Assembly (NCBI GenBank): GCA_008636045.1
Contig: SNRW01000003.1
Span: forward strand, 1-56,927
Length of the DNA: 56,927 nt
Direction of reading: 5' to 3'
Source of the DNA: Streblomastix strix
Lineage: Eukaryota
Of this stretch, positions 19,500 through 56,927 are shown one piece after another. The notes beneath the pieces are model-generated. The model saw nothing but the letters and a program-made list of their open reading frames with translations, was not told the DNA's origin and made no database searches. Position 1 is the first letter of the stretch, and each line of letters opens with the position of its first letter. The translations under genes and the position numbers were made by a program.

Positions 19500-20965
19500 A
19501 ACGTTTAATAGTTTTCAACAATAAAAGTGTAAATTGAAGGATAAATAAAGTAGTTTTGAGTATTTGAAATAAACAAATTCAATTACATTCTTATGTAAAA
19601 TTTAATGAAAGTATTTTAATCAATGAAATAATGTAATTAACCGAAAAATGAATGATTTCTTAATTTTCGTTGATAGCAACGAAATTAAAAATATATATTA
19701 TTGACGTAAGAATTGCTATGATATTTTGAAATAGATAATCTATTTGTCATACACAAAATATTGCTGAATACTTAATAAAAGTGAAATATGTAAACCAAAA
19801 CACGATCAGACCCTTATTTAATTTTCGATGAAATTTGATTAATTCAAAAATGCATAATTTTAGATTAATATTTATTGAATAATTATGTAAAATAAAATTT
19901 AATATTTTTTTTAGGAAATTAATTAATACTTATTATAATAGTTGCAATTTAATTAATTTTTTAATTTATTTAGATTTAATTTTTCTTATTTCTCATTCTT
20001 TCGAATTTTTTCAATTTTAGTTTCATATATTCCAGAATTTTAAACCTATTTATTTACATTTGATATTTATGAATTATTTTCTGATTGAAATATTTGACTA
20101 TTTTTCACTTCAATTTTAATATTTTTACCATAAATTGTTCAATAAAAATTTAATCTATTAATAATAATTTAAAAAATTTTTTAAATCTTTAACTTTAATA
20201 ATTTTATATTAATTTTACTATTTAAAATTAGACTATGTTAACATGATCACTAGTAATTCAAAAAAATAAAATTAATTTGGAAAAAATTTCCAAATAAAGA
20301 TAATAAAATAATGTTAATTATTTATAAATAATATAAATAATATAAAAATAAAAAAAATTGATATAAATGAATATAAATGATTGATACTAAATTTAAACAT
20401 GTTATTCTAATGTTAATTCGGTAAAAATTGAAATAATATAATTAATATTTATTCAATTCTCATTTAGATGAAAATTTTTGAAAATGTTATAATTAAAAAT
20501 AAAAAAATTAAATAAGTAACAAACGATAAATAGCTCTAAATTATGACGTATAATAGTTTAAAATTATAAATTGAAGGATAAATAAAGTAGTTTTGAGTAA
20601 TTGAAATAAATATATTCAATTACATTCTTATGTAAAATTTAATGAAAATATTTTAATCAATGAAAAAATGAAGATAACCGAAAAATGAATGATTCCTTAA
20701 TTTTAGTTGATACCAATGAAATTTAAAATACATATTATTGACATATGAATTGTCATGATATTTTGAAATAGATAATCTATTTGTCATATACAAAATATTG
20801 CTGAATACTTAATAAAAGTGAAATATGTTAACCAAGATACGATCAGACCCATTCAAAAATTTTGCTGAAATTTGTAAAATTCAAAAATACATAATTTTTA
20901 AAATAGCAATTATTGAATAATTAAATAAAATATAATTTAATAATTTTTTAAAAAATTAATTTATT
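19500..20965 (+). repeat. Pair of diverged ~400-bp direct repeats (~19500-19930 and ~20545-20965)
   Basis: Both contain aaattgaaggataaataaagtagttttgagta...gatattttgaaatagataatctatttgtcata...cgatcagaccc, about 1040 bp apart. Confidence 0.85.
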
Positions 20966-21909: not shown

Positions 21910-22408
21910 GATAGCACAAATCAATGATTTAAATGATGAGCTCTAACTAGTTTATATTAACTTATAATGATTAAGGATTCCGTTGAATCAAATTTTATTG
22001 ATGAAATTAAATTAGTTGTACTTACTAGTTAGTCGATAGTTGAAATACATTATGTGATGAAATTGATGGTGATGAACAGATATAGAATCTAATATAAACA
22101 TGATTTATGAATTCCTCGTATATGATATGACCTTAGTGAAGGGTATAAACGTGATATGAAAAATTAAGAAAATTGATGGGATTTCAATAATCTAATAAAT
22201 TATTTTATTTTTAATATTTAGGAAGATAAAAAATTGAAATCTATAATGAAAAATAAATGTTTCCTTATTGACTTGAAAGTTAGTATCTTAGTCAATGTTG
22301 GTATGCTGATCACGAATATGATGTTAAAATTAAGTGATTGGGCTGAAAATTTGGTCGAATTAAGCGGAATAATGTAATTGATAAATCGTGAGGATAAATT
22401 GATTGATT

Positions 22409-22490
22409 TGTCCACATGCACGGTAAACCGGGTTGCACGGGGTAAATCGATAAACTATTTTAGGTGTTGCCATTAGCCATATCGCCATTA
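22409..22490 (+). promoter_or_regulatory. Conserved ~85-bp GC-richer viral motif, copy 1 (most diverged)
   Basis: ttgtccacatgcacgg...gcacggggtaaatcgataaactattttaggtgttgccattagccat; homologous to 47468-47550(+), 47690-47775(-) and 50640-50715(-). Function not shown. Confidence 0.6.
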
Positions 22491-22509
22491 ATTAAATATA
22501 ATTTATTTT

Positions 22510-23790
22510 ATGAAACTATTAGAACTTTTTATCCGTAACCAAAATGATAAACCAAGAATCTACATGCATCGAAACAAACACAAATGAATCCTTAAACACT
22601 AAACATTTTACATTAGAAAAAGGTATAAAATATAACATAATCGTAAGTCAACTCCCAAATCAAAATCAAATGATAAAGCAACTGAATTAAAGGATAAATT
22701 AATTGTAGAATAAGTATTAGCGAGAATCAAATGGGAACAAGAAGAATATGATATATAAAAGAAAGAAGTTGTTACATTAAGAAATAACATTAATAATTAT
22801 TTATCAACATCATCAATTGCTAACTCACGGATAGATTATATTAATAACTATGTAGATTAACACCATAAGTAACTAGCTTAACAAGTAATGCAACAATCAG
22901 GATTAAAAGATATTACATCATTCTATGGTAAAAAAGAAGATATACTCAGTAAATATAGAGATGAAAAAGAATCACATTAATCATTGGATGCTATTACAAT
23001 GCGATTATTATCTTAGAATCTAATGTATGATTAACTGTAAGCATAAATATTAGCAAAAAATATAATTAATAATACAATTGGAATAGGTGATCCTTCGTTA
23101 GTTGCAATATCTAATGTCAATGCGTAAATTGCTGCAGAAATATATAATTATAAAGATGTATAACCATACAGTAATCTCAATGCGTTATAAGACTAACCAT
23201 CATAAGATTTAAATAATAAAGAATAACCAATATCCGAATATAAATAAAGAATAGATAGAATAAATGAAGGAAATGAAAAAGAGAAAGAATAAGAGCTTTA
23301 ATAAGATAAGGAGTTTCATACTATAAATGATATAGAACAATTAGATAATGAGGTATTACTTGAGGGATAACCTTCATAAATAATTTCACCACCTTAAGAT
23401 TAAAAATCACTTGTATACGAATAAGCAGAATAAAAATAAATTGAAGATTTATAAGCTTAATAAATGATCGAAATGAATAAAGCAATGAATTATAAGCTTG
23501 GGTCAATAGATTGGGGATTAAATTCTCTTAATGCAGTTCAATTCCCTAAGAAGGATATAAGTATGAGAATTAATGATAAAACACCATCTTATATATAAAT
23601 GAACAATGTATAATCTAAAGCAGAGAAAGTAAATTAAGTTAAAATTAAAAAGAACTTCATTAGCGAAAAATAAATGCTTGCATAAATAGAAGCATAGAAA
23701 GAGCTTAAAAAGAAATATGGAAAAAATAACCAAAAAAGAAGACTAAAAAATCAACTTGAAACCATAGGTTTGAGTTTCACTAAGTCTATA
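22510..23790 (+). pseudogene. Degraded viral coiled-coil hypothetical ORF
   Basis: ATG 22510, in-frame TGA at 22585, then a long Q/E/K-rich code-6 frame with frameshifts after ~23340. Confidence 0.5.
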
Positions 23791-34149: not shown

Positions 34150-35440
34150 TCAATCAACTTCCATTCTTCCCGCTTATTTTCTTTTAGCTTATGCAATTGC
34201 ATTAGGTGCTACTTATTAATATACTTAATCCATAATTCTTACGAACGCATCTTCATCTTCTGCAATCTTAGCGAAATATAAACTAATAATTTATTTCTTG
34301 AAATGATTTGCGGCTTATTTTAATATTGCATCACTAGCTTCAGCCCAATCATATACTGGGTCTATTTCTTCTATTAATCCTCTCTATGTCTCTTTCCATG
34401 TTGCAGATGCTGCAGTCATGTACTCTCCCTTACCCCATTTTTCTATTTGATTAGTGCCTTTATATTCGTTTGCAATGGTTGGGACATAAGTAGCTAAGAA
34501 ATGATTTCTTGGAACTAATTATTAGAATTATTTCAAGTTATAAGTGCCATCTTTATGTTGTGCTCCATATGGAACTTCCTTACCTTACATAAAATCAAAG
34601 AATTTAGTATTTTTACGTTGATCTTTTGCTACTTAACCGATATATTATTCTCGATATTTATCATATTTACTTTCGTCTTTTTGGTATATATCCGCCCATA
34701 GAATTTAATTTTCCTTTATTCGTATAAACGGTAGCGAATTCAGGTAGTGGACCTTCACCATCTGGATCAGCCATCTACATAGTATATCCTTGCATACTTT
34801 TATGGGAAGCAATGTATCGTTCTCCTGATGGTATTGTTCTGAATTCTTAATTATATTTTATATCTATATGAAGGTTTTGTTTAACATTCAATATTCCGAT
34901 TAATGATTGCAGTTATTTTGCGTTAAGTCTTGTTGCACGCGTAATTCTACCTTATGCAAGCTTCTATAATCTAGCAGCTTTCTTATTACGTTTTTCTTCG
35001 GATAATGAAGCTTAATTTTTCTCTATCCATTTTGAGAAACTCGATTGTTATACTTAAGCCATGTTTTGGTTTTAGATAAAAGTTGGGATTTGTATTTATT
35101 CTATCGCTTATTCTCTTGGTTATTATGTTCGTTATTATGTTGATTATAATTATACTAGTGGATTTTAAGTAATCGTTTAATGTTAACTAGCAATATAAGT
35201 TTCCAAAGGATTATTAGTAATCAATTATGTTGAATTCTAATATTTTTATTATATTTTTCGAAATGCAATAACTGTTTGATTCAATATTTCTAATTCTTCT
35301 GCTTTACTTTTACGACCTTTGTGTTTATGTTAATTTTGTACACGATCCTACGCATTACGTAACTCATTAATGAATTCACTATTAGCTCGAGCAATTGTTC
35401 TGATATCTCCAATTTCAGAATTTAACTCTTCTGCGCTCAT
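34150..35440 (-). CDS. Viral hypothetical protein (~430 codons, one apparent frameshift; may be two genes with a second ATG at 35062)
   Basis: ATG 35440 is in frame with ATG 35062 (MAQVQQSSFSKW...). Basic composition; ends ...MEVD* at 34150. Confidence 0.55.
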
Positions 35441-35491
35441 TTGTTAAAAAGAAAACGTTCATAACCGATTGAAATAATTAATAGCAAACAA

Positions 35492-36301
35492 ATGTCCTTG
35501 ACAGCATATGTAGATCAATTGCTTAGTAAATAGAAAACTAATAAACATGAAGTATAATCAATGATTCATAAAGAACTAAATTTCTCATATAATTCTATCA
35601 ATCTGCTCATAGGATAACGTGGAAGCGGTAAGTCATATAATGTATTTAAAGATATAATCAAATTGAACTAATTACATAATAAATGTTACACTCTATTCAT
35701 ATATGTTACTGATAGCAATAATGATATAACTGATAAGAAAATGAAAGACTTGATCCCTATCCCAACTAAGATAGTTCCATATGCAGAAGTGAGTGAAGCA
35801 TTAGATGAATTGATTGAATGTAGACAAGCTTATGATGAAGTTATTGAAAAGAAATTAGAAAAATAAATGAATGATGAATCTAAAAAAGATATATTATCTC
35901 ACGTAGGAACAAAGGACTTTGCTATCAAATTTCCACATACAATAGTGCTATTCGATGATGCAATGAGTATCTTCAAGAATAAAAACAATCCATTATACAA
36001 GAAATTATTCAAAAATAGATAGCCCAGAATCACTTACTTCCTATGCTTGTAAGACATAATTGGTTTAGACGCTAGTACTAAATCTAATGTGGATACAGTA
36101 TACTTTTTCGGTGGATTCAATAGATAAAAATTCAATTTTTTCTTCTATTATTCAAGCATTCCGTTAGATAAAGAAACGTTATGGAATGAATAAGTGTAGT
36201 TAGGCAAACGTGAAGCATTATTGGTATAGTATAATAATGATGGAACAATGGTGCGAGTAATACGATCAATGAACGTACTCATCATCTTAGTAAGAAATTG
36301 A
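35492..36301 (+). CDS. A32-like (FtsK-HerA superfamily) DNA packaging ATPase, apparently intact
   Basis: Walker A LIGQRGSGKS, Walker B IVLFDD, arginine-finger/Gln region KNRQPRITYFLCLQD. 270 codons in code 6. Confidence 0.88.
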
Positions 36302-36699: not shown

Positions 36700-37563
36700 T
36701 ACATCAATGTGCTCTTTCTGTATTAATAATAGCTTATATGATATCAATTATGAAATCTAATTAGTCTTCAGGGAATGTATAATGTGTTGACCATATTTTT
36801 ACATCTTGTCTTGATTATAGAGTTTCTTTAATTTTCTCATAAATTGTCATAGCTATTGGTAAATTATCAACAAAAGTAATGATTCACGACGATATCGTTC
36901 TATTTTTGCGGGATGTAAGTCTTTTTTATTAATTCTTCTGATGCGTATTGTAATATGATCTTCCTACTATTCTTCATGTTATTCATCTTCATTAATCTCT
37001 TCAACTATCAATATATATGTTCTTTCTTTACCATTTGGAACAGCTCTTGGCGCTACTTATCTATATTTTTAATTCAATTCAGTGATTCTATCAGATAATG
37101 TATCAGTAACTGTGTTTATTACACTATGGTATTGATCTGCTATTGCTTATGTTTTATCAGCATCGTGTTTCGCAATGACTGTTTCATTAATTTTATCCAT
37201 TGTTTCTCCTACAGTTGAAACATATTTTGGTGAAGCCCAGATAGCGATATAGTTAACTAATTTAGGATGTACCCAAGTTCCTCTAAATTCAATTTAATAA
37301 GTATCAACTGACTATATAAAAATCTAGGGAGAAATTTTTCTCCCTTGATCTTCACGATGATTTAGAACGAAATGTCCATGATATTCTTACCAGTTTTTTG
37401 ATTTGAATAATGTGTTTAAATAACTACGATTATTGTTCTTAAGTATCATAACTAACTTTGAAGCATTAACATATTGATCTGATTTACGAATTATAATTTC
37501 AATTCCATTATAAGTTGTTTTAATGAATGTTTCTTAACCGTTGCTTTCTAATGTTGACTGCAT
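36700..37563 (-). CDS. KilA-N (APSES-like) DNA-binding protein with coiled-coil and C-terminal domain; frameshifted
   Basis: TYNGIEIIIRKSDQYVNASKL...W...FRGTWVHPKLVNYIAIWASPKY. Frameshift near 37310, just after the central palindrome, and probably another near 36875. Confidence 0.88.
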
Positions 37564-37619
37564 TTTCTGATTAGTAAAAAAAAGTTGGATTAGTAAATGA
37601 AACGAACGATTATTAATCA

Positions 37620-37932
37620 ATTCATAAAAATAATTTATCACATTAGTTCAAAAACTCTAAATATCCTTGATAATGTCATCAACTTCTGCATCATATTGTT
37701 CCATTAATTCTAATCTAGTATCTTCATCACTTTCATTAGCCATAGGATCAACAAAGCTATAAGCTAATCCAACTAATCTATTGATTATATTTTCCTTAAG
37801 TTTTTTAAGTAAGTTCATGCTTCTATTACTCAAATTCTTTGATCTTTTTAGTTTATTGTTAGATTTATAATAATTTTTAGCATTAAACGATAATTGTTTT
37901 CGATTCCATTTGCTTATAATAAAAATATCCAA
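37620..37932 (-). CDS. Small hypothetical protein with acidic C-terminus
   Basis: ORF track 37657-37932 (...NRLVGLAYSFVDPMANESDEDTRLELMEQYDAEVDDIIKDI), extends slightly under code 6. Start uncertain. Confidence 0.5.
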
Positions 37933-37968
37933 ATTACATTTTGATTAATACATAAAAATAATTTATGA

Positions 37969-38192
37969 GGGGTCAGCCGAATTTCGGCCGACTGATTGAA
38001 CTGATAATTTGACTACTAATCTCCATGATAAAAGTTGTTGGGTAAAATTTTACCCCTCAAAATGAACAGATAATTTGAACACAAATCTCCATAGTAAACT
38101 GGGTCCCTATGAATTTCGGACCCACCAAACAATCCTTCAAAAATAAATTCAATTTCGTAAATCAAATTGGGTCCCTTCAAATTGAAGAGACT
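37969..38192. repeat. Array of four different palindromes at ~65-69 bp spacing; the first two linkers are copies of a ~40-bp repeat
   Basis: gtcagccga-att-tcggccgac (37972-37992); gggtaaaattttaccc (38040-38055); gggtcc-ctatgaatttc-ggaccc (38101-38123); gtcccttcaa-a-ttgaagagac (38171-38191). Linkers tgaactgataatttgactactaatctccatgataaa and tgaacagataatttgaacacaaatctccatagtaaa. Confidence 0.85.
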
Positions 38193-38201
38193 AGTTCACA
38201 A

Positions 38202-38594
38202 TCAATATTGAAGTATTAATTCAAGAATAAATTTTATATCTATTTATGATACATTCTAATTCATATTATTTTTGAACCAAATCAATATACTTGACTAATA
38301 ATTCATTTATTAAAATTCATTAATCGTTTTTGTTTCATTACAGAAATCTACAAAACTATCATAATATTATTCTTCTTATACTAATGTTGAATGAATAGAA
38401 ACTATATCAGGAGTATTAAAAATCTTACATTATTTGAATGTTATTTTTCGCTAATTATTTGAATTAACAAAATCATAAGGTAACTATACTTTAAACTTTC
38501 CGTCATTATACGTACAATCATCTTACATTATTACGAAGCGCTTCACATTCTGAGCTGAAGTCATATCATTAATTATTGCACGATTATATGTCAT
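38202..38594 (-). CDS. Putative minor capsid (penton, single jelly-roll) protein, copy 1; frameshifted
   Basis: Directly downstream of the MCP. LPYDFVNS...HSTLVQEEQYYD...ILIWFKN...KFILELILQY* is homologous to 53743-54176. Small and beta-rich, with a C-terminus typical of Polinton minor capsids. Confidence 0.55.
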
Positions 38595-38626: not shown

Positions 38627-40348
38627 TCAAGCAGTTACTTATCCAATAACCTCATCGAATGAATGAGTTGTATTATAATCGCAAGATCCTCCATTATTTG
38701 GACTGAATAGCCAGAAAGTATCATGAACTGTGCACAGAATTGGAGGAGGTTGATGTTTTCCATTAGTATCAACATTATAATAAGTATCAACCACACCTTA
38801 ATATATTGGATATCCATGCAATTCAATTGAAGTATTCTAATTTTGAGTGTCTAATCTATCAAATGTTAATACACAATTGCTCTTACGTTCACATTATAAT
38901 GTAGTGAAGAATGATGTATAATCAATTACAGAATTATATCATCTAGTCGAATTTCCTCTTGAAGTTGTTAATGAATCTTCATATTCATCAATAGCTTCGA
39001 ATATATTATCGAGATTATTTGCAGTCATCTACATTGTGAAAAATTATTCATTAAATGTATTCATGGGAAAATCTGGGAAATTTCTTCCTAAAGTAGACAA
39101 CTACATATTTTAGTAACATGGATTTTCGATGCAAGTAGTTTGTCTAGCATCCTTAGGAAATAATAAGCACATATCAGTAACATGAGATAGCGGTATATTT
39201 TATGAAGTACGTAATCCAGTGAGAGTAGCACCACTTGGAAATGCCCATGTTTCAATACGTTATGCAGGTACAACAAATGGACGAGTTAAATAGAATTATC
39301 GTACACGATTAAGACATTCTTGTGAAGCTTTATATCCACACATATTTGCAACAGCTGCAGTAATGACATAATTTCTTACAGATACTGTTACTGGTTTAAT
39401 ATCACAAACTAGATTCTTTAATCCTGATGGAGTTAGCTCTTCAGCACGTACTCCTGTAAACAAATCAGCAGTGCATCCAATTTATGTGAACATGTTAATA
39501 TATTAGAATGTGAGACTCCAGTTGCGGAAGAATAGATCAATATCCTAAAGCTTATCTTGACCTGAGCTCAATAATTCATCTTTATTAATTGTATAGTATC
39601 TAGCCATCGAAATTACTGGATCAATTTGGTAAAAGACAAATGCGTTTGGATTGATTTTGAATTTAATTTTGAGATCTCCAAATAATGCGTTAGGATATTC
39701 AGAAAATGCTGAGAAAATGAGTAAATCATCTAGTAGAATTGAGACAGAGAAATTTACTGGCATAACATATGGTGCAGCAGTTTGTGGAGCAAGTGCATCT
39801 GAAATATACTTGATACTAAGATATTTTCCACAATGTGATATATTATCTTTACGTACATTTTCATAGAGTGAATGAACGAATCTATTATTATTTTTCTCTG
39901 ATTTTGGTTTGATAGTATTATAGATAAATTATTCAGTAGTAGAATCATTCTGGAGGGATCCATCAATTGTTCTTCCTCGATGATATAGAACATATTCGCG
40001 AATTAGTTATGCAGATGATTTTAATCCAACAAATATAAATGTTCCAGCTTTATAAAATTCGCTAAATTAATCAAATTTATTATCAAACAATAGATTCATC
40101 GTAAAATCAAGAGTAATGAATGAATTTTATATTTATGTTACATCATGATCTGGATCGGTCAAACTGATAATAACTTCTTTATCAAATAATGATGGCATTT
40201 ATGATTCTGGTTTGATCTCTTTGATTGAGAAATGGTGTTATCCATCGTTCTAAAATGGTTGAATTGCGAAGGTCTTTAACATGTTCTCGATTGTTTCCAA
40301 ATTGGTTTGTGTTTTAGGCACATGTGTCTTCATAAGTTGGCGATTCAT
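38627..40348 (-). CDS. Putative major capsid protein (double jelly-roll), copy 1; one in-frame TGA
   Basis: 574 codons, beta-rich (PNALFGDLKIKFKINP; QNIPLSHVTD), colinear with 51994-53700 and near the packaging ATPase. TGA near 38940 aligns with Arg in copy 2. Fold inferred from size and context. Confidence 0.72.
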
Positions 40349-40401
40349 GTTTAATTGCGCAAAAATAATCTGATTATATGTTAGTTAACTCAATTAATGA
40401 T

Positions 40402-40731
40402 TCATTATAATTCATCTCCAAGAAGCTTTATACGATTGCTTATTATATCAATCGGAACATTTTTCCTTAAATAATCATCCTATCGGAATGTCTTAAAATC
40501 TTATCTGAACTGTTATTTTCCTTATTATTTATTCGGCCCAAATAAAGGATCAACTGCAGATGATCCTGAACTAATGCCTTTCGCAACCATGCTTCCTGCT
40601 GGTCCAAGAGACGATAGAAGTGCATTTGTTATGGGCATTATTGGTTTGACTACTTTATCATTCATCCAACTGACTCCTTTACCTACAACTGAGACTAATT
40701 TTTTAAGCTTGCTGAATATTCCCGGTACCAT
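40402..40731 (-). CDS. Small virion-type protein with N-terminal amphipathic helix, copy 1
   Basis: MVPGIFSKLKKLVSVVGKGVSWMNDKVVKPIMP...; 110 codons in code 6, immediately upstream of the MCP. Paralog at 51581. Confidence 0.7.
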
Positions 40732-42503: not shown

Positions 42504-45359
42504 TCATTTATCCCATGTAGCAGATGCACATTAAATGTATGTTTTAGTTGTTGATTTACAGGTAATAAGTCCAGTTGAATGAGTAATTGATACATAACCA
42601 CCTTTATCAACAGTGTGATTCGGAAATGAGGTATATGTTATAAGAGCTATATCATCATAAACTAAATAATCAGGATTAAATGTTCAAATATTATAATTTC
42701 CTCCATTAGCGAATAGTGAAAATATATAAAGACTACCAATTCTAATTAATTTATATTAAATTACTGCTCCATTCATACCACTAAATGCAGATGACGTTAA
42801 ATCTTCAATCCCACCAAATGATGTTAATAATCTATCTCCACCACCAGCCAATAAGACTGATGTATCATCTTTACCAGTTTTCACAAAACCTGTAGCACTA
42901 ACATTTGAATTGAATGTCTTAGTTCCATTTATTGATTGAGTTGCATTTGTAGTAACAACATTTGTTAGTTTTGCATCTACTTCAGACTAAGTCAAATATG
43001 TATTAGCTACAGGATCCTACGTTTCATCCTGATAGTCAAATGGACTAACATATTTTAATCTTCCTGTTATTATTTATTGAATTGAACCTTCTAATCTTAC
43101 AAATTTATTATTTGCTTCAGTTTGTGAATTTGTTTATGTTTTTGTATAGTAATTTGATAAATCAGTTGGAGTATCAGTAAATTCTGAAAGTGGTTTAGTA
43201 CCACCAGCTCCAATTAAAACTATAGTATTAACTACTCCTGATTTGATAAATGATGATCCTGTTACTGTCGACATTCCATCAATGGAACTTACGAATTTAC
43301 AAGCATTATTGAATGTCTTGTTTGCATTTATTGTCTATGAAGTACCTAATGTCATATAATTAGATAGTTCGGTTGTATCTGCTTTCTCACTTAATAATTC
43401 ATCTGTTTTTGTTTTATTGTAATAATCAGTCAAATCAACATCGCCAACATCAATCTATGATATTAATTGATCAGTTTCAGTTTTTGTATATGTTGTTGAT
43501 TAATCGGCTTTATCATTTAATAGATTATTTGTTTCTCCATTAGTATAAGAATCAATTACATATGTCTTATCAGCTTTCAATAGTAGGAGTGCATCATCTT
43601 CTGTCTTGGTATATATTGTTGATTTATCAGTTTTCAGTAATAAAAGCGCATCATCTTCAACTTTAGTATAAGAAACTCCAATATCCGCTTTATTATTTAA
43701 TAAGTTATTTGTCTCACCTTTAGAATATGAATCTATCAGTTATATCTTATCAACTTTCAATAATAAGAGTGCATAATCTTCTGTCTTAGTATAAGAAACT
43801 CCAGTATCTGCTTTATTATTTAAGAGATTATTTGTTTCACCTTTAATGTATGAATCAATCAATTATGTCTTATCAGTATTCAACAATAAGTGAGCATCAT
43901 CTTCTGTCTTGATATATGTTGTTGATTTATCGGCTTTCAATAATAAGAGTGCATAATCTTCTGTCTTAGTATAAGAAACTCCAGTATCTGCTTTATTATT
44001 TAAGAGATTATTTGTTTCACCTTTAGTACTTGAATCAATCAGTTATGTCTTATCAGCTTTCAATAATAAGAGAGCATCATCTTCCGATTTAGAATATGAA
44101 GCACTTTAAATATCTGCAATTGATCTAACTCCTCCTCTTGCGCAAACTACGCTTGAATTATTATACGTTTGAACCATGATTCGAACTGAATGTATTGTTT
44201 TATTAAATGTCTTTTAGTTACTTATACTTTGATCATAATCTGTATCTACAATATTTTTATTTTTTGCTGGTGTTAGCACATTTCCATCAATTGATATATC
44301 ATTTATTGCATTACCTCCTCCAGTAGCTGCTCCTAAAGTTGTTATAACATTATTCATATCAGGTAATTCTGTTTCTAGTACTTTTAAGTCAGTTCCATCC
44401 TACCAATAATCAGTAACTTCCTTATCAACAATATATAAATTATCTCCAATTATTAATTTTGCTACATTATCTTGAACAGCCATCCAATCATTCAACTCTC
44501 CTTATGTTGAGAATACGTATGCTTTTGACTTTCCAGTAGTAATATCTCTAACTTCTTATAATTACGGTTGTGTTACTAACGAACTTACTAATATATCTCC
44601 TCCTCCAGCAAGAAGAATAGATGCATCATTTTTACTCAATTTCGATACGCTTGAAACTCTAATTATACCGAATTATTTTTATCCTGTAATTGTTTGGGCA
44701 GAAGTTAAATCAACATAATTCGTTAAATCTGCAACATTAGCTATCAGTAATAATAGAGCATCATCTTCTGTCTTGGAATAACTATCAACAATATCAACAA
44801 CATTAGCCTTTGCATCAAGTTGGGTATCGGTTTCAGTTTTAGTATAAGTATCTGATTTATCAGCTTTCTATAATAGGAGAGCATCATCTTCTGTCTTGGA
44901 ATAACTATCCACAATATCTGCTACATTAGCCTTCAATAATAAGAGAGCGTCGTCTTCTGACTTTGTATATGAATCAATTAATTCAGATTTGTTTGCTTTA
45001 TCATCGAATAGAGTATCGGTTTCAGTTTTCGTATAAGTATCAGTTTTATCAGCTTTAGCATCGAGTAGATTGTCAGTTTCATTTTTCGTACAAATATCAG
45101 TTTTATCAGCTTTATCATCGAGTAGAGTATCAGTTTCTGTCTTGGTATATGTGTCTGATTTACCTGCTTTTGTATCAAATATTTCATTTGCTTCAGGTCT
45201 AGCGTATATATCAGGAGCAGGAGCATTATTTATCTTATTGATTTGATTATTAATTTTTTCGACCTATTCGACTGAGCCAATAGAATTATATCTAATATTT
45301 CCGAATAAAGCTTCATCGTGTTTTATAAGAACATCTAATGAGTGGAGATCTGAATCCAT
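42504..45359 (-). CDS. Tail-fibre/spike-like repeat protein (~950 codons, a few frameshifts)
   Basis: Many YTKTETDTLLDDKADK / YTKTEDDALLLLKADK / YSKGETNNLLNNKAD repeats plus QTITGQKQF, QSINGTKTF and LLAGGGD fibre motifs. Ends ...ATWDK* at 42504. Confidence 0.7.
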
Positions 45360-47159: not shown

Positions 47160-47404
47160 AAATGGCTTATTTTTGCGTTAATGTGTGCATGTTAATGAAG
47201 TGGATAAATGAAGTGAATTATTCATGTCAGCTTAGCTGGCTTTTGCGAAGCAAAGTGTGCAAGTGTGCTGGATAGAAACCATAAAATTGACAAAAATAAT
47301 AGTTGGTCTGTCGGTCGCTCAGATTAATTTTTGCGTTAATGTATGCGTTAATCAAGTATGTGCAAATGAGATGTTATATCCAATATTTCGAGTGCACGTG
47401 CACT

Positions 47405-47775
47405 GCACGAGGACTATTTTAAGATAATTCTTGAATTAATGTTCTGACATGAAGATATACATTAATTTGTCCATCTGTACGGGGTGCACGACCTACACGG
47501 GGTAAGTTGATAAACTAATTTGAGGTCTGTCATAAGTCATTTCGCCATATTGTATTTAATTCGACATCGTATTTCCAGAATCATAAGGAAAAATAGATTT
47601 GATCCAATGATTACATACAATAATCAAAATCATTCATTTTATAAAATATTACGCACTTCAGAATGATGATGATTCAATAATATTTCAATTATGGCGTTAA
47701 TGGCTAATGGTAGATCTCAAATTAGTTTATCAGCTTACCCCATGCAGGTCGTGCACCCCGTGCAGATGGACAAAT
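47405..47775. repeat. Two inverted copies of the conserved viral motif (47468-47550 +, 47690-47775 -); 47405-47545 is also a close inverted repeat of 50640-50776
   Basis: ttgtccatctgtacggggtgcacgacctacacggggtaagttgataaactaatttgaggtctgtcataagtcat, with its reverse complement about 140 bp downstream. Confidence 0.88.
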
Positions 47776-47842
47776 CGATTCATTACTGCATGATTCTAGC
47801 ACAAAAATAAGTTCATTCATTTAACTGCACGATCACTTTTAT

Positions 47843-50575
47843 TCATATGTATTCATTACCTTCTTCTTACTTTTCTTGATCAACTGTTTATGTTTCAGCT
47901 TCTTTCTCATAAGCATCTTCATCTAACATATTTTCATAAATTGTTATCATTTTTTCTTTCATTTTATAGAATCTCTTTCTTTGACCATTAGTTGTTCTTT
48001 ATATTTGGCTACATATATTATTTATCGCTAACTAATAATTTTTTAGAACTATATCATGAGGTTTCCATAGCTCTACTTGTGATATGATTACCCCATCTTT
48101 GAACTACTTGAAATGATCAATTATAATGTCATCAACTTTTGACCTTGATGCTCTTATTATATCTTTCTTAGCTTATGTCATTGGAATGTTTCTTGGATTA
48201 AAATAAGAAATATTTCTAGTCATAAAGAATATGAATAAGTTGTTATAAAAATCTTCATCAAAGCTATTGCAAAGAGTAGTGAAGTAAGCTAGATCCCCTC
48301 GATGAACTGAATTGCATTTGCATACAACATAACGTCTATCATTATTCTCTATTTTTATTGGAAAGATATTATTGGTAACAAGTATCGTATTCACTACATT
48401 CTCAACTTCATGCTTTGGAATATATTTTTCATTAACAATAAACGAATGTTGAGTAATTATTGATTTCAACACATCCATATTGGACATTCTCGATTCTCCA
48501 AAATTCTTCATTTCATTAGCAATTGCAAGCATCTTATTTTCGATAACTGCATTAAACTTACCTACAAAATCATCTATATCATTAATGTTCTTTGAAGAAT
48601 ATCCTGCTTGTAATTCGCATAAAACATTAGTGAATACATTCTTTCCAATACCTTATAATCCTTGAAGTATAATAGCAGTTTCAGTTTTCTTACCTGCATT
48701 CTACACAATATAAGCAAACCAATTTAATAAATATTCATAAATCAATTCATCATTTGCAGAGATAGTATCTTTCACTAATGCTAGGAATCTTTCTATTTTT
48801 GTGTAGTTCACTTTTTCTAATTGTAAGTACTTATATCCTTAGAATACACTGAAAAGTTAAGGGTTTTAACTAATGAATCTTATACCTACCTTCTCGAATA
48901 GTGAATGATATTATTCTAAAGCATCAATTGCAGTTATATTCTTTTTCCCATCTTACCATAGTCTTTTTGAACATAATTAATCATAGATAGCAGTCTTATT
49001 TTATAATGAATTGTATTGGTATTATGCAAACAATCATATTTTTTAATGACAAAACACCATCTGTTTTAGCAAGGTACAACCTTTATTATTTTAAGCAAAT
49101 CTTCAGCAACTAATTCTAATTAATTTTAAAATTATCCATTTAATGCTTTACTAGATAAATCTGTTAATGTGAACACATCTTTCAGGTCAATTTCATGCTT
49201 CTCAATTTATTTCACCGTATCAACTATTTTCGATTATTTTTTCACTTCATAATTCTTTTTCAATAGTGGTTTAATTATCTATTCATAATAATCTTTTTTA
49301 TGATATCTTAAGATTTTTGTAAGGATCCATGGATTTGGCTTGTATTCACCATTAGATGATGCTTATCCATAATTCTTATCAGCGTTTGCAGATAGCTTAT
49401 TGAATTTACGTATATTTCCTATTCCTTCAGTTCTAATTGTTTCGTTAGTGATTCGATATAATCCATTGAATATACTTAATAATGATACTTCCATATTGCT
49501 TGGTTGTGGATAGTTATGTATATCAAGATTCTTCAATCCATCAACACACGCTTATGCAAGTTGATCATTCATTTATTCAATTGTACCTTCATCATTGATT
49601 TATACTCCATATACTCTATCATGTTGCTATTATGCGTAATCCTTATATAACATCTCAATATCTATATTCCATTTGTCAAGTATCTCTCGCAAGCTCGCTA
49701 AATGTGATGCATTTTCCGAATCATTAACTGCTTCATATTTGAGTGTAACTCGTTAATTATTTTTAGTTTCTCGAATAGCTGCGTTAGGAGCAACTACTCG
49801 ATTCTAAATCAATTCCTTAGTCTCTAATCCATTTTCAATTTTATATTTATTCATTTATGCAAATACATCAATATTAAAGCTATCTGTCACAGCAATTTTC
49901 ACATTATGATTGGAAAGTAATCTATAATAATTTCTAATGCAATATATGTGTAGTCCTCCATGTGCAGTCTTAACTAAACCTACATTTGGTGGAAGTGAAT
50001 CAATTAGATTTTATCTTATTTTATCAATCCCTTGTATTGACTTATCCTTATGAATGGTTATATCAACAACACATAGATTATCTTCATCCATTAATGATAA
50101 ATCAATTAATTTGCCTGTTTTTTTTATTTTTTGCCTTCTTATTATCCTATTTTTGGATAGTTTACTGTCTTAATCATAGCATCTTTAACTCGTTCAATTA
50201 TTGTTTTTGAATCTTATTCCTACATATATATAATTCTGCTATTGGTTGTATCATTTCAAGAAATTTATTATCATCTCAATTTTTTTCTAATCTATATGCT
50301 AATTATTAATTTGAAAGTCTTGCTTCAAGATCACCTTCAGAATTAATTAAATCATGAATGGTTTAATCATATTTCTCTTCAATAATCTGCTTATTTTTGA
50401 GTTCATTTATCTGTTCATTCGTCTGTTCATTAATCATTTCATCAATCATAGCTTTTGCTCTCTCATCTGTTTTCGATTTGCAAGTATATTAACGTTTTGG
50501 TCCTTTCTCAAGTGTTTCACATTTCACGTTTGATTGTTGGTTTGATTTGTCATTTGAAAATCCTTGTGTTGCCAT
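47843..50575 (-). pseudogene. AEP (Prim-Pol) primase fused to a D5-like SF3 helicase; lightly disrupted
   Basis: LCVVDI.IH, VKTAHGGLHIYC and RVVAPN (AEP motifs). LLNWFAYIVQNAGKKTETAIILQGLQGIGKN (Walker A), IANE (Walker B), ILVTNN (motif C), DRRY. TGA near 50276 and a frameshift near 50120. Confidence 0.9.
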
Positions 50576-50639
50576 TTTGCTTAAGGATAAAAAGTTCAAA
50601 TAGTTTGAAAAAAATAATTTTTATTTAATTTATAGCATT

Positions 50640-50776
50640 AATGGCTTATGGCAGACCTCAAATTAGTTTATCAAGTTACCCCATGCAGGCCGTGCACCCT
50701 GTGCAGATGTACAAATTAATGTATATCTCCATGTCAGAACACTAATTCAATAATTATCTTAAAATAGTCCTTGTGC
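50640..50776 (-). promoter_or_regulatory. Conserved viral motif, copy 4, ~65 bp upstream of the primase-helicase ATG
   Basis: Reverse complement matches 47405-47545 closely. Regulatory role inferred from position only. Confidence 0.6.
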
Positions 50777-51019
50777 AAGTTGACAATTCACTTCATTTAT
50801 CCGCATTATTAATCAATCACATTTATTCTAATAAATCCTCATCACCACTTACTTCGTAAAGCCAGCTTTGCTGACTAATTTCATCAAATAACGTATTTCA
50901 CTCATCGACCAGTTAGTCGATGCCACTATTTCAATTTCATCAATGAAAACTTAATCGGACATAGTCAAATAATCAATATAAGTTAGTACGCATCGGTCAA
51001 ATCATTGATTTGAGCTATA

Positions 51020-51387
51020 AGTAGTTAATGAAAAAGGATGGTGCCCGAAACATTGCCTAAATCCTATTCATTTGTGGGTATCGGAAATGAGTTCAATTAT
51101 TTATTTATTAACGCATATCATAAATCATATCAATTATTTTTTTATCATAAATGTATATCATAAATCAGATCGATTATTCTTCATTACTAATGATATTCAT
51201 AAATGTTATTATTTATTATTTTATACGTATTTCTTTATTAATATCAATGTATTCCTTGATTTTCGGTTCTGGATAATCTATTCGTTTTTCATATGTCAGC
51301 AATTCGCAATATCACTGAGTATTTCTGCTGTGGGCAAATCACTATGTTTATCAATGTGAGAGCACCATCCTTTTTCATTAACTACTA
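51020..51387. repeat. 368-bp unit bounded by a perfect 25-bp inverted repeat starting AGTAGT; probable right terminus of a Polinton-like element
   Basis: agtagttaatgaaaaaggatggtgc (51020-51044) and gcaccatcctttttcattaactact (51363-51387). (AGT)n ends are typical of Polintons. No target-site duplication seen around the unit. Confidence 0.75.
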
Positions 51388-51389
51388 TG

Positions 51390-51518
51390 TTATGTTATTT
51401 TATTGTGAATGGTTCTACAAAATAATATTCATTTTCTGTTGAAAGAGCGGGAGTAATATCTCCTTCATCAACTGATGTATAATATTATTGTTCCAGTGGT
51501 TTATATTACCTTGATTGA
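51390..51518 (+). pseudogene. 3' remnant of the structural gene homologous to the end of 40800-42438
   Basis: VISPSSTDVQYYCSSGLYYLD* vs VIPESSTDIYKYYSNGMYYL*. Starts abruptly after the actact terminus. Confidence 0.55.
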
Positions 51519-51580
51519 TTATATAAGTTAAAAGCAAATATTATTTTTGTTTAATCGAAACAAGAAAAATAATCAAAATC

Positions 51581-51905
51581 ATGGTAGTTGGGATCTTCTC
51601 AAAACTCAAAGCACTTGCTCAAAAAATAGGTCACGGATTATCATGGATTAATGATCACGTGATAAAACCAATCGTACTTCCTGCAGAAAACTTGATTACA
51701 CCTACACTTGGACCAGTTGGAGGAATGATAACTAAAGGAATTAATTTAGGATTATCAGCAATTGATGTAATCGGAAGAAAAAGATCAAAAATAAAAGGTG
51801 AAAGATAACTTTACTGACTTTAAGAACGACACATATGTTAAGTAGAATTTACCAATTGAATCATTGAGTCGAAAAATAAAACTTATTGGCTAAGAATTTA
51901 AATGA
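51581..51905 (+). CDS. Amphipathic-helix virion-type protein, copy 2 (frameshift near 51790)
   Basis: MVVGIFSKLKALAQKIGHGLSWINDHVIKPIVLP... and ...NLPIESLSRKIKLIGQEFK* align with copy 1. Confidence 0.7.
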
Positions 51906-51993
51906 ACATCTAAGTATAAATAGTAATTGATAGATTACTTACATTTATATGATTTATAACGAAGTTACTATTTTTGTTCTTTCACAAATCAAG

Positions 51994-53700
51994 ATGAATC
52001 GTTTTCTAGCAAAAGCAATCTAAGTTCAAGGATTAAACACAATTGAAGCACAATTAGAGTCTAATGCCGTTGTCTCATTCAAAAATGACGGAGAAAATCA
52101 CTTTTCAATTAAAGAAATTAAGCCAGAATCATAGATGCCAACTTTATTTGATAAAAAAATTATTATTAGTCTATCTGACAGTGATCATGATGTAACCCAA
52201 ATATAAAATTCATTCTCATCTAGTGTGTTGATTGCTAATCTATAATTTGATAATAAGTTCGAATAATTTGATGACTCATACAAGGATGGAGTAATATTAT
52301 TTGTAGGATTGAAGTCAGGAAGCAATATCATTCGAGAATACACAGTATATCATCGTGGAAGAACTATTGATGGAAGCATATAAAATGATGCAACAACTGA
52401 GTCATTCATCTATAATACTATTAAGTCAAAGTCAGAGAAAAATAATAGAAAATATATACATTCATTGTATGAAAATATCCATAAATTCGATACTTCTACA
52501 TGTGGAACATATATTACAATGAGAAAGATTGATGAAGCAATTGGATAATAAACAAATGTTCCTTATTTGATGCCTGTTAGATTCAGAGTTTCAGTACCTT
52601 TAGATGATTTGTTGATATTCACAGCTTTCACTGATTATCCAAATGGAATGTTTGGAGATCTTAAGATTAAATTCAAGATCAATCCTAATGCATTTTTGTT
52701 TGCATAAGTTAATCCAACAGTATCATTAGCTAAATATTATACAATGAATAAAGATGAATTACTAAGTTCAGGTTTATAGAAGTTGATGGATATTGATCTC
52801 TTCTTCCGTAATTGGAGCTTAACATTCTAATATACGAAATAATTCACTTAGCTTGGATGTACTGCTGATTTGATAACTATTATAAGAACTGAATAATTTA
52901 TACAAAGTGGTTTGAAAAATTTGATTTGTGATATTGCACCAGTAACAGTTTCAATAAAAAATTACGTTGTAACTGAAGTAACTGCTAATATGGCTGGTTA
53001 TAAAGCAACTGAAGCATGTTTAGCAAAAGTAAGAGATTTCTCCAGTACCAGAGCATTTGTTGTTCCTGCTTAGAGAGTTGAAATATGGCCATTCCCAACA
53101 TCAGCATCACTTACAGGAATAAGAACTTCTTAAAATATTCCTCTATCTCATGTGACAGATTTTGTATTATTATTCTCTAAAGATGCAAGATGTACTACTT
53201 GCTTTGAGAATCCATGTTACTAAAATATGTAATTAACAACTTGTGGAAGAAACTTCCCAGATATGCCCATGAATACCACTGATTAATAATTCTTCCAGTT
53301 ATAGTTGAATGCAAGTAATTTGGATCTATTATTTGAAGCAACTGATGAATTTGAAGATGCATTAACAACTCCAAGAAATACTGCAACTAGAAGACTTATT
53401 GCACATATGGATTTAACTTCTTTCATGATTTCATTATAATGTGAAAGAAATAGTAATGGTAATCTAACTTTTGATGGATTAGACACTCAGAACTAAAATA
53501 CTTTTGTTGAACTTCGTGGTGCACCAATTTATCAAGGAGTAACTGATTGCTATTATAACGTTGATACTAATGGAAAAAGACCCCCTCCACCAATTCAATG
53601 TACAGTTCATGATACTTTCTGGTTATTTAGTCCAAATCAAGGAGGTTCATGTCACTACGATGCAACACATTCATTTGATGAAGTTATTACAAGTGTTTGA
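51994..53700 (+). CDS. Putative major capsid protein, copy 2, intact in code 6 (568 aa)
   Basis: Uninterrupted frame ATG 51994 to TGA 53698-53700, colinear with 38627-40348. TAA aligns with CAA/CAG at several positions. Confidence 0.75.
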
Positions 53701-53742
53701 AAACAAAATTATTTATAAATGAAATATAGTGTTATTTTTGCT

Positions 53743-54176
53743 ATGAATGAAACATGATTGTAGCGCCAAATAAAAAACATTTTATTATAACACGTGAGCA
53801 TACCTAAATCTAAGTTCGATCATTCAAAAGAATATTACTAACAGAATTTGTAAATTCATAGGATTAAAGAAGAATAACATTCGTCTAATGTACAATTCCA
53901 TGGAAGATTAAAAAATATTATCATGATTTGTACTTATATGATGATCCTGATACAACTCCAACTGAACAACGTAAAACTTCATTACATTCGACAATAGTAT
54001 AAGAAGAATAATATAATGACTATTATGTTGGAATGTGTGATTAATAAAGAACTTCAAAAGTCTTTCAGTAAATAAATCATGCACCATATATTTATTTCTT
54101 ATTTAAGGAATAAGATGGAAATTTACTGGATGTGGATCATATGGACTTTATATTAGAATTGGAGCTAGAATACTGA
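53743..54176 (+). CDS. Putative minor capsid protein, copy 2 (5' part disrupted)
   Basis: EFVNSQDQRRITFVQC...LHSTIVQEEQYND...FKEQDGNLLDVDHMDFILELELEY*. Confidence 0.55.
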
Positions 54177-54238
54177 TTATAAAATGATAACTAATTATTT
54201 TTCTTGTAATAAAACATTGCGACACATTGTGACTCAAG

Positions 54239-54636
54239 ATGAATCGAATTATCTTTGATAATCGTGCAGGTAGTCGCACTAGGACACCATTAAAGTCATC
54301 TGTTGAAATCATTCCAGAAATATAAATCTTGGAAAAATTTAATCCAGATCCCATAGTATTTGAGAATGTAATGGAATTCAAGTAATATCTAGCATTAAAC
54401 AAGGGAGAAATGGAAAAAATGTCAACATTGAAATTGAATATGTAATATAAAATTAAAGTAGGTTATAGAATTTCTAGATTTAAAGGATAAATTCTTTGCA
54501 TTTATGGCCTAAAGAATATAAATTAGAAAGATAATCAGAAACCATTGATTAGATGTAGAATCTTTATCAAAGACTAGAATCATTAATTGCTGCTTTATTA
54601 AGTAAAAATATAATAACAGATGAAGATTTGAATTGA
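54239..54636 (+). CDS. Conserved viral hypothetical protein, copy 2 (frameshift near the 3' end)
   Basis: Homologous to 36267-36680 and in the same position, convergent with the ATPase. Confidence 0.6.
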
Positions 54637-54650
54637 AAAATTAATATATA

Positions 54651-55427
54651 TCATTATATGACTGATATTGTAGTTCCATCTTCATTATATTTAACTAATA
54701 GAGCTTCTCTTTTAGCAAGTTATACATACTAACTCCAAAGTTCTTCTTTATCAATTGGAATTGATGACTAATAGAAGAATAAATTAAATTTCTATCTATT
54801 GAATGATCCAAAGAAATAAATAGAATCAACATTTGATTTAATTGCTGCATCTAATCCCATAATATCTTGCAAACAAAGGAAATAAGTAATTCTTGGTTAT
54901 CTATTCTTAAATAGCTTCTTGAAAAGAGGACTCATCTTATTTTTGAAAATGTACATTGCATCATCGAATAAAACAATAGTATGAGGAGATTTAATTTTGA
55001 AATCCGTAGCTCCAACAGCATCAAGAATTTCTTTTCGTGATGTTTCATCTAATTAATCAGTAAGATGTTATTCAATTACCTAATCATATGCTTATTTACA
55101 TTCTATTAGATCATCAAATGTAGCATCTGCTTATGAGTATGTTACTATTTTTGTAGGAATCTTAATCAAATTTTTCATTTTTTTGTATGTTTAATCATTA
55201 TTAGGGTCTGTAACATGGATAAATAAAGTAAAGCAATGATTTTTCAACAAACTTAATTTAATTATTTCTTTGAAGATGTTGTAAGTCTTTCCACTACTTC
55301 GTTATCATATGAGTAGATTTATAGAGTTATATGTAAAATTTATCTCAGGGTGAATAATGGACTATGTATCATGTCTATTTTCATTGATATTCTTTAAAAG
55401 TGAGGTAACATGCTTTGTTAATGACAT
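54651..55427 (-). pseudogene. A32-like packaging ATPase, copy 2, with a stop in Walker A
   Basis: LI*QRSSGKT (vs LIGQRGSGKS), IVLFDD, KNRQPRITYFLCLQD. 259 codons, colinear with 35492-36301. Confidence 0.88.
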
Positions 55428-55656
55428 TTCTACTTAAAATTCTTCGTAAGAGTTCTTTGCTATTACTTTAAAGATCTTATGAATGAAAAAATCACTTATA
55501 AATTCGTAGATAAATAATCTAATAAATCAAAAGATTTTTATTATTAATTTTATTTTTTTAAATTTTTTTCTAAAAATTTTTATTAAAATTTTTTCACTAA
55601 TGAACTTTTTCATTTGAAAATTCATTTTAATTTTCTTCGAAAAGCAGTCAAAAAAA

Positions 55657-56358
55657 ATGAAAAAATCAACTTTTACACTATCTCCTGCATAAATTTACGC
55701 TAATAATTTCATCAATAATATGTTTTAACGTGATGCAATCAATTGCACTCGTAAATATTATATGATTTCCCATGAAAAGTTAGATGAAATAAACTAACTA
55801 ATTAAGAAACAAATATAATGAATACAAGTATTAAAAACCTTAAATTTATTATTAAAAGAGCAATATATCTAGGAAATAGAGCAGAAGCTGATGATGATGA
55901 TGATTTATCAGATAAATATTATTAAATTTATTAAGATATTGATTTAAATATCAAACTTACTAAATTTATATTAAAAAATTTCTTGAAAATTAATTAAAAA
56001 GAATTAGAAGTAATAATTAACGGCAACAAAGACAAAGCATTGAATTAATTATTGGTTATTTATAATGTTCCTAATGATTTAAGTGAAGCATTAGGTGAAC
56101 AAGATGGATTTTACTATGATATCAACAAATCCATCTTAGTACCTAATGATTATGGTATTTCTAGTATAATTCCTAATAAAATCTAAGATGATACTATCAA
56201 TCCTAATACAAATGATTAACCAAGATACTTTTAACACTATCGATTAAATGATCCATTAGATGAACAAGATTTTGATTTTAATGATGATGAAATTGATTCA
56301 TAAGTTGATATTGATGATGAAGATTATACCGATTATGGTAATGATGGAGATGATTGAA
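55657..56358 (+). pseudogene. Hypothetical protein with acidic C-terminus, disrupted
   Basis: ATG 55657, internal TGA and frameshift, ends ...DYGNDGDD*. Confidence 0.45.
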
Positions 56359-56927
56359 TAAATTAAAAAATTTAATTAATATTTTTTTATTATTTTATTA
56401 TTTTTTATTATTTTATTTATTTTTTCAGGCATATTAATCACAATATTTTTAGTAAATCAACGAGCGATGAGCTAGAGGAGACATCAAAACTGAGCTCTAC
56501 CAATGCGAAATTAATAATATAGGAAGGGCGCCGATCGCCACTTTGATGAAATTTAGAAAAAAAATAAAAAAAATAGTGTTTGCAGAGCTGTCTTGCATGT
56601 TGAACTGTGTTTGCAGAGCAGTTTTGAGCTGGAAATTACAAAAAAGTTCTTGTTTTGTAAAGTTGAGTTGCAAACAGCCGTCTCTGCGCGTCATCATCAA
56701 ATCTGGGGGTATTTTAAATATGGTATTGATTTGACATATCGGTATTTTGAGTTGATTTTGTTGGCATTGTCAAAAATAAAAGTAAAATCTAAGTTTTTGT
56801 TATCAACAATTATCTTTTCTTTCATCATATGCACATTCTTACTCAAATTAATACAGTTATTCAGCCCAATATTCATCCCAATAAGCTTGATAATCAAATC
56901 TGCGCTCATAAGGAGTATATTATTTTG

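Follow-up and report, generated by a model that had tools for sequence, protein, structure and literature searches.

A variable row of palindromes near a viral KilA-N gene of Streblomastix strix includes candidate sites for sibling KilA-N proteins

A Polinton-like element integrated in the termite-gut protist Streblomastix strix has, upstream of its KilA-N gene, a regularly spaced row of four different palindromes, two of which read, at the peptide level, as the palindrome-coded loops of other KilA-N subfamilies and some of which are exchanged in other copies of the array. Judging from these matches and from changes in the proteins that track the DNA, the array palindromes are probably sites for sibling KilA-N proteins. 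At somewhat better than even confidence, we further take each KilA-N protein to bind the palindrome in its own gene, with the array mimicking the sites of siblings; we infer that the palindrome inside the KilA-N gene described here is a candidate own site of the protein encoded there.

Results

The window, by which we mean the whole 56,927-nt stretch analysed here, is readable solely under genetic code 6. S. strix is an oxymonad, and viral elements that use code 6 and carry capsid genes are reported from it in the available part of PMC10120064. A Pfam scan of 32 ORFs identified a Polinton-like element region with protein-primed polymerase, ATPase, HNH, and KilA-N genes (Table 1). Two large ORFs without a Pfam match, at 38939-40405 and 51949-53700, are paralogs with 64% identity, and from size and position we take them as putative capsid genes. 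Frameshifts were observed in several genes of the element, KilA-N included, and the KilA-N reading frame of this decayed copy is broken near 36870. The inverted repeats at 47404-47792, 50540-50948, and 21993-22579 bound no single clean element; these repeats, both inverted and direct, may mark the ends of nested elements. A second viral block in the opposite orientation (50276-56400) holds the capsid-like ORF 51949-53700, small ORFs, and an ATPase, and has neither KilA-N gene nor array. We also observed an 891-aa, fibre-like ORF (42684-45359) with 19-residue-type repeats and a weak BppL_N match.

Table 1. Coordinates of the array, the KilA-N gene, and associated features in the window
Feature	Position	Strand	Remarks
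Palindrome p1	37972..37992		AATT core; replaced by other palindromes in other copies
Linker 1	37993..38039		Repeat copy 37997-38032; right end 38029-38039 lies inside the stretch matching the paralog loop of p2
Palindrome p2	38040..38055		Perfect, 16 bp
Linker 2	38056..38099		Repeat copy 38063-38098
Palindrome p3	38100..38124		Imperfect, weak: 7-bp arms, 11-nt centre
Linker 3	38125..38170		Unrelated to linkers 1 and 2 (13-14/40 identical)
Palindrome p4	38171..38191		AATT core
Intragenic palindrome	37322..37349		In KilA-N frame, codes QGRKISP
Family B polymerase PF03175	24065-25384		26.6 bits, cut-off 25.8
Family B polymerase PF03175	29841-31523		25.6 bits, slightly below cut-off 25.8
Packaging-type ATPase	35327-36301		Weak Pfam match
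KilA-N gene PF04383	36847..37563	-	61.3 bits, curated cut-off 23.8; code 6
130-aa ORF	38202..38594	-	Ends 10 bp from array; paralog 53754-54176 without hairpin behind it
Small ORF	37648..37953	-	No Pfam family; between the two 26-bp motif copies
26-bp AT-rich motif, copy 1	37941..37966	-	Adjoins array
26-bp AT-rich motif, copy 2	37613..37638	-	50 bp before KilA-N start

The first-pass annotation of this DNA had described four different AATT-core palindromes, a common repeat in the first two linkers, and a fifth palindrome within the KilA-N coding sequence, and all three features were borne out at the positions in Table 1. The AATT cores of p1 to p4 are spaced 66, 66, and 68 bp apart, and linkers 1 and 2 have 36 nt in common at 83% identity. 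The array was also correctly placed upstream of KilA-N, with the correction that it lies about 400 bp from the KilA-N start and that a small ORF stands between. The 26-bp motif, by its position, is inferred to be a promoter-type signal of the next gene. Scans with sigma-70 and terminator models, which are ill-suited to a eukaryote, returned nothing above chance. The linker pattern was found in the window only as the two known copies and had 0 matches in viral contigs, while an Rfam search gave one chance-level match and no family.

Across the 57-kb window, 33 hairpins were listed, the intragenic palindrome being the top-scoring one. Only at the array do four hairpins lie within 230 nt, a density reached in 3 overlapping windows out of 5,670, and none of 500 dinucleotide shuffles gave a cluster of at least three, under a cluster threshold that was relaxed after the array had been seen. 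The first, stricter hairpin setting gave 8 matches, which included only p1, p2, and the gene hairpin of the five palindromes, with p3 and p4 falling below it. The three hairpins near 20100-20340 consist almost wholly of A+T and have no relation to the array.

The strand of the array folds better than 200 of 200 shuffles and the array starts 10 bp past a stop codon, as would suit RNA hairpins that end or polyadenylate the transcript of the upstream capsid block, comparable to the Mimiviridae hairpin rule; the available text of PMC4402537 adds that such hairpins are not conserved in sequence. We consider this role extremely improbable, given that the paralogous block (51949-54176) has no hairpin behind its stop, that GC-rich hairpins of this sort are missing at the other viral gene ends checked against the hairpin list, and that the best hairpin sits in the middle of a gene. 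A terminator would also give no account of the KilA-N loop matches or of the helix covariation presented below.

Other copies of the array were examined in contigs of four runs from three studies, one of them possibly the source of the window itself, compared at 80% likeness. The variation between copies that the annotation had proposed looking for was found among the contigs listed: different palindromes stand between the same linkers, units are skipped at three joints (37970 to 38170, 38026 to 38170, and 38039 to 38109), and a unit is added at another (38098 back to 38064), most joints being single contigs at 80% likeness and several having fewer than 30 letters on one side. Three inserts from other copies were translated by hand. 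SAGPKRDQPP matches P0038 and P0008 in 9 of 10 residues, PFNLNVP matches P0009 in 6 of 7, and SAGHIQVQP is in the register of its subfamily with no exact match. In one contig, 37984 is joined to 37318, which places the gene-type hairpin beside array DNA. Further contigs join the array directly to DNA upstream of KilA-N, past the small ORF 37648-37953.

Linkers 1 and 2 are each identical to the gene DNA 5' of its hairpin at 21 of 40 positions, in register, a likeness with a background frequency of 0.0015 that was noticed post hoc and involves two related copies. This weak likeness suggests that the linker originated when part of a KilA-N gene was captured; a piece of this kind is present in the viral locus L030, where an inverted KilA-N gene fragment includes helix and palindrome. 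The same observations, together with the decay of many copies, could point to neutral debris, in which strand-displacement replication makes hairpins into recombination hot spots where functionless bits of KilA-N genes accumulate. This appears improbable, as the period is a regular 66-68 bp, the linkers are conserved while only the palindromes change, the captured pieces end at the palindrome plus a few bases, and contigs of several runs again have p4 at the end of the array.

To compare the array with KilA-N genes, we considered the S. strix family, which supplied all 57 relatives returned by the first homologue search with the KilA-N protein. These proteins form subfamilies that are told apart by a short loop, characteristic of each, which follows the second and third helices. 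Read on the minus strand, 38029-38055 (p2) gives GQNFTQQLL, the exact loop of P0021 and P0037, and 38169-38189 (p4) gives LFNLKGP, the exact loop of P0012, P0040, P0070, and P0073, both being matches to the peptide and not to the paralog DNA. As a control, any 7-residue match to the loops of the 39 intact paralogs occurred in 4 of 915 control windows, all at one place. No exact match to p1 or p3 was found among 159 loops from 308 proteins, and the loop nearest to p1 is the SAxxxxTP type of P0087/P0079. An occurrence in frame in a paralog, for which the annotation had proposed checking each array palindrome, was seen at the peptide level for p2 and p4, which match two other subfamilies, and among these 159 loops was not found for p1 and p3. 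The four similar peptides read earlier from the array (VGRNSADP, RGKILP, VGPKFIGT, and LFNLKGP) lie in different frames; LFNLKGP is the one that matches paralogs, and RGKILP had to be given up for p2, whose S. strix match is in the GQNFTQQLL frame. Six annotated KilA-N models (P0017, P0045, P0058, P0060, P0063, and P0002) lack exactly the helix/loop stretch, probably through spurious introns or real deletions.

Outside S. strix, a single KilA-N protein found no relative in viral contigs, and a KilA-N alignment found one distant locus in metagenome contigs, L001, without hairpins. The 16-mer of p2 is present in 61 viral stretches (20 distinct), 0 of them in a KilA-N frame and 4 in P22_AR-like frames. 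These phage antirepressor-type frames are in L081, L091, L092, and L109 (around 601-616), the last confirmed as P22_AR_N.

The annotation had offered, as a second reading, that the units are donor cassettes which rewrite the KilA-N loop by recombination. The repeat/variable-unit layout would fit, as would the weak in-register likeness of linkers and gene, and under code 6 the array can be read through in a single open frame, although such frames are common where TGA is the sole stop. We nevertheless regard this reading as decidedly improbable and it did not survive the comparison of paralogs: in 39 of 39 intact paralogs the loop class stays in its own backbone, and 0 of 39 carry the loop of another subfamily. 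Changes of the loop accompany changes in a helix ~25-30 codons upstream, which the units do not encode. The flanks are 52% identical, which is too low for homologous exchange, and p2 would enter the gene in the RGKILP frame instead of the frame of its S. strix match.

The KilA-N domain has the winged-helix fold of Mbp1/PCG2 (model pLDDT 88), with 1mb1 (E 6.5e-4), 1bm8, and 4ux5 as the best PDB matches. Residues 47-54 align with helix B of Mbp1/PCG2, and the palindrome-coded loop (~73-82) is modelled at low confidence and absent from Mbp1. For residues 1-175 of P0001, a homodimer was predicted with a score of 0.83 (best of 3 controls, 0.00), with runs agreeing in at least 45% of contacts and pLDDT of at least 70; in benchmarks, 20 of 30 microbial pairs reached the score mark, against 1 of 23 single chains, and so did 17 of 29 eukaryotic pairs, but only 1 of the 7 eukaryotic pairs that had no older solved relative. 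The predicted dimer suits a two-fold symmetric site. The C-terminal domain had no PDB match, and Atlas led to DUF3627/T5orf172-like clusters with scores below 0.9; since these are leads only, we make no claim of a nuclease.

We then asked where KilA-N alleles with different loops differ elsewhere. From 43 S. strix proteins given, 37 were aligned and 31 compared in five two-allele subfamilies. Fixed differences between loop alleles fell in 18 of 55 helix columns versus 33 of 465 other non-loop columns, where the columns are not independent and the allele groups were drawn after the alignment had been seen. Two subfamilies had 4 helix differences each and 0 in 95 other columns. Variability within alleles was no higher in the helix than in the rest (12/88 versus 107/744).

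A similar pattern was observed in other viruses, for which 47 of 68 loci were given (near-copies dropped by eye) and 45 scored. Of these 45 viral KilA-N genes, 20 carry a strong hairpin at the loop in question, whereas two control zones had 0 of 45 each. Among the rows listed, an acidic residue precedes the conserved aromatic of helix B in 9 of 10 with a GCGGG core versus 0 of 37 with other cores, the GCGGG rows being the discovery set, with one label set by hand from sequence. The single row to violate this rule is L205, which is the same as L069. On a tree of the 47 rows built without helix and loop, GCGGG is scattered, with 10 changes, and 7 independent pairs gave 6 differences in the same direction, 0 opposite, and 1 without difference (p 0.031). 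A second pair of base and residue stood at 21/24 versus 0/23. GCGGG and GCCGG both code AGIPA, and among the AGIPA rows the acidic residue was found in 9 of 10 versus 0 of 12; at an identical peptide, the helix therefore follows the DNA and not the peptide. It was also observed that the reading frame of one and the same core can differ from gene to gene.

The underlying scans covered three 14-mers in viral DNA, with the forecast of the helix residue set down before the rows were compared. Among the matches listed, 48 of 309 distinct 14-mer sites were in KilA-N frames; for the GCGGG 14-mer, the matches listed comprised 100 distinct sites, of which 12 fell in KilA-N frames at E 0.01, most of the others being chance, and 1 lay in a non-coding hairpin cluster. 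None of the 38 new rows among the matches listed, one of which repeats a discovery locus, had an acidic residue before the aromatic. The forecast of His at this position was correct in 22 of 38, the rest having Arg, Tyr, Leu, or Gln.

KilA-type palindromes were also found outside genes, in non-coding DNA of L030, L069, and L138. In L030, which is of giant-virus type, a non-coding stretch behind the KilA-N gene (1050-1340) holds two such palindromes, one of them within the inverted fragment, which derives from another KilA-N allele. In L069 (3565-3645), two tandem stand-alone palindromes lie behind the KilA-N gene, neither being its own, and this gene is the exception to the helix rule noted above. 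The non-coding cluster of L138 (780-1100) comprises five hairpins, most AATT-centred and one of KilA type, between what we take to be the end of a tape-measure-like ORF and a Fic-like ORF. A giant-virus contig, L036 (2600-3700), has recurring hairpins between tRNA-like sequences.

Discussion

Two loop matches, arrays that vary, and a helix that tracks the intragenic palindrome lend support to the operator or decoy idea of the first-pass annotation. In the mechanism we propose, helix B of KilA-N would read the palindrome arms, with the protein acting as a dimer on the palindrome carried in its own gene. This own site would mark a genome as 'self' to its KilA-N and may spare it from a replication block by KilA-N, as aba does for BstA, or may recruit KilA-N as a helper. 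Elements would profit from copying the sites of rivals into an array, via recombination at hairpins, and owners could escape by a joint change of helix and palindrome, leading to many alleles. If each KilA-N binds the site in its own gene, the array would let a virus pass as 'self' to several rivals. Points that count against this mimicry are the unmatched p1 and p3, the wing-led contacts in PCG2, the decay of the copy, and the absence of a palindrome in aba.

The array could alternatively serve regulation, in which case sibling KilA-N proteins would bind it to raise or lower the activity of the next promoter (small ORF, kilA), while the intragenic site would be used for negative autoregulation. 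The array adjoins the 26-bp motif, of which the other copy stands before the KilA-N start, contigs of other copies link it directly to the DNA upstream of KilA-N, the spacing is a constant 66-68 bp, and the helix evidence applies equally. Autoregulation alone, however, gives no clear reason for the repeated joint change of helix and site, and we think this explanation rather unlikely. Mimicry is favoured over such cross-regulation because the repeated joint change resembles an arms race, and because BstA/aba sets a precedent, in which a KilA-N-like protein goes with a self element specific to its variant.

According to the available part of PMC8585504, BstA of the Salmonella prophage BTP1 has a KilA-N-like DNA-binding domain, and aba is a short, variant-specific DNA element in the gene's own locus that protects its carrier. 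The domain is the one part that BstA shares with the proteins studied here, and aba in turn resembles the intragenic palindrome. We count as a further likeness that, in the same portion of that paper, aba works in trans in many copies. The covariation of helix and palindrome would suit a variant-specific pairing of protein and DNA. As described there, aba comprises a single element of 63 bp that lies over the start of the gene and has direct repeats at its ends, whereas here the palindrome is in the middle of the gene; the present case also differs in its array of non-cognate candidate sites and its eukaryotic host. With a mid-gene palindrome and no direct repeats over the gene start, it is not classed as a member of BstA/aba, though it would work like a cognate protein/site system.

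The fungal APSES proteins Mbp1 and PCG2 have the same fold, and in the available text of PMC4333399 and PMC4862756 helix B lies in the major groove. In the PCG2 complex (PMC4333399, same portion), the wing makes most base contacts and one conserved site is read, while viral KilA-N proteins have an extra helix, a palindrome-coded loop, and a variable helix B. Phage Rha, Ant, and Bro-N are also DNA-binding genes with an intragenic palindrome, but belong to other domain families and bacterial hosts. In the available text of a preprint on polintons of Parabasalia (10.1101/2024.03.23.586382), a KilA-N gene is present in a metamonad Polinton-like element with many copies, its function is called unknown, and among polintons it is restricted to Parabasalia. 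The gene at 36847-37563 is, by contrast, a KilA-N gene in an oxymonad Polinton-like element. The C-terminal part of its protein resembles parabasalian KilA-N/DUF3627 clusters, as a lead only.

No Cas protein and no integron integrase was found in the 32 ORFs scanned. CRISPR arrays, integron cassettes, and baculovirus hr repeats all have a layout of repeats and variable units, and the hr repeats are palindromes at a period of ~70 bp. In the array described here, it is the palindromes that vary and the linkers that repeat. The annotation had named no described system of this kind in Polinton-like viruses, and our literature search, which covered mostly openly accessible main texts, likewise found no paper that describes palindromes inside KilA-N genes or arrays of this kind. 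The terms 'palindrom' and 'hairpin' occur 0 times in the main text of 10.1101/2024.03.23.586382, and PMC4409740 contains none of the terms of the phenomenon.

Conclusions

Few viral DNA-binding domains are as widespread as KilA-N, from which fungal cell-cycle regulators derive. In the available parts of PMC4862756 and 10.1101/2024.03.23.586382, the DNA target and function of viral KilA-N are described as largely unknown, and the former adds that little is known of the sequence which non-fungal KilA-N recognises. If these genes spell their own sites, thousands of pairs of protein and site could be read from sequence and tested by a simple binding assay, and the helix-to-base code, if true, would be readable and common to phages and giant viruses. 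An array of rivals' sites would mean a new kind of conflict, or of cross-talk, between endogenous viruses in one protist nucleus. More tentatively, and with doubts that presently outweigh our confidence, Polinton-like viruses may fight one another with KilA-N exclusion proteins, each with a self password in its gene and an updatable array of its rivals' passwords. If true, this would be an acquired, heritable immunity between eukaryotic viruses that operates through protein-DNA sites, with no RNA guide.
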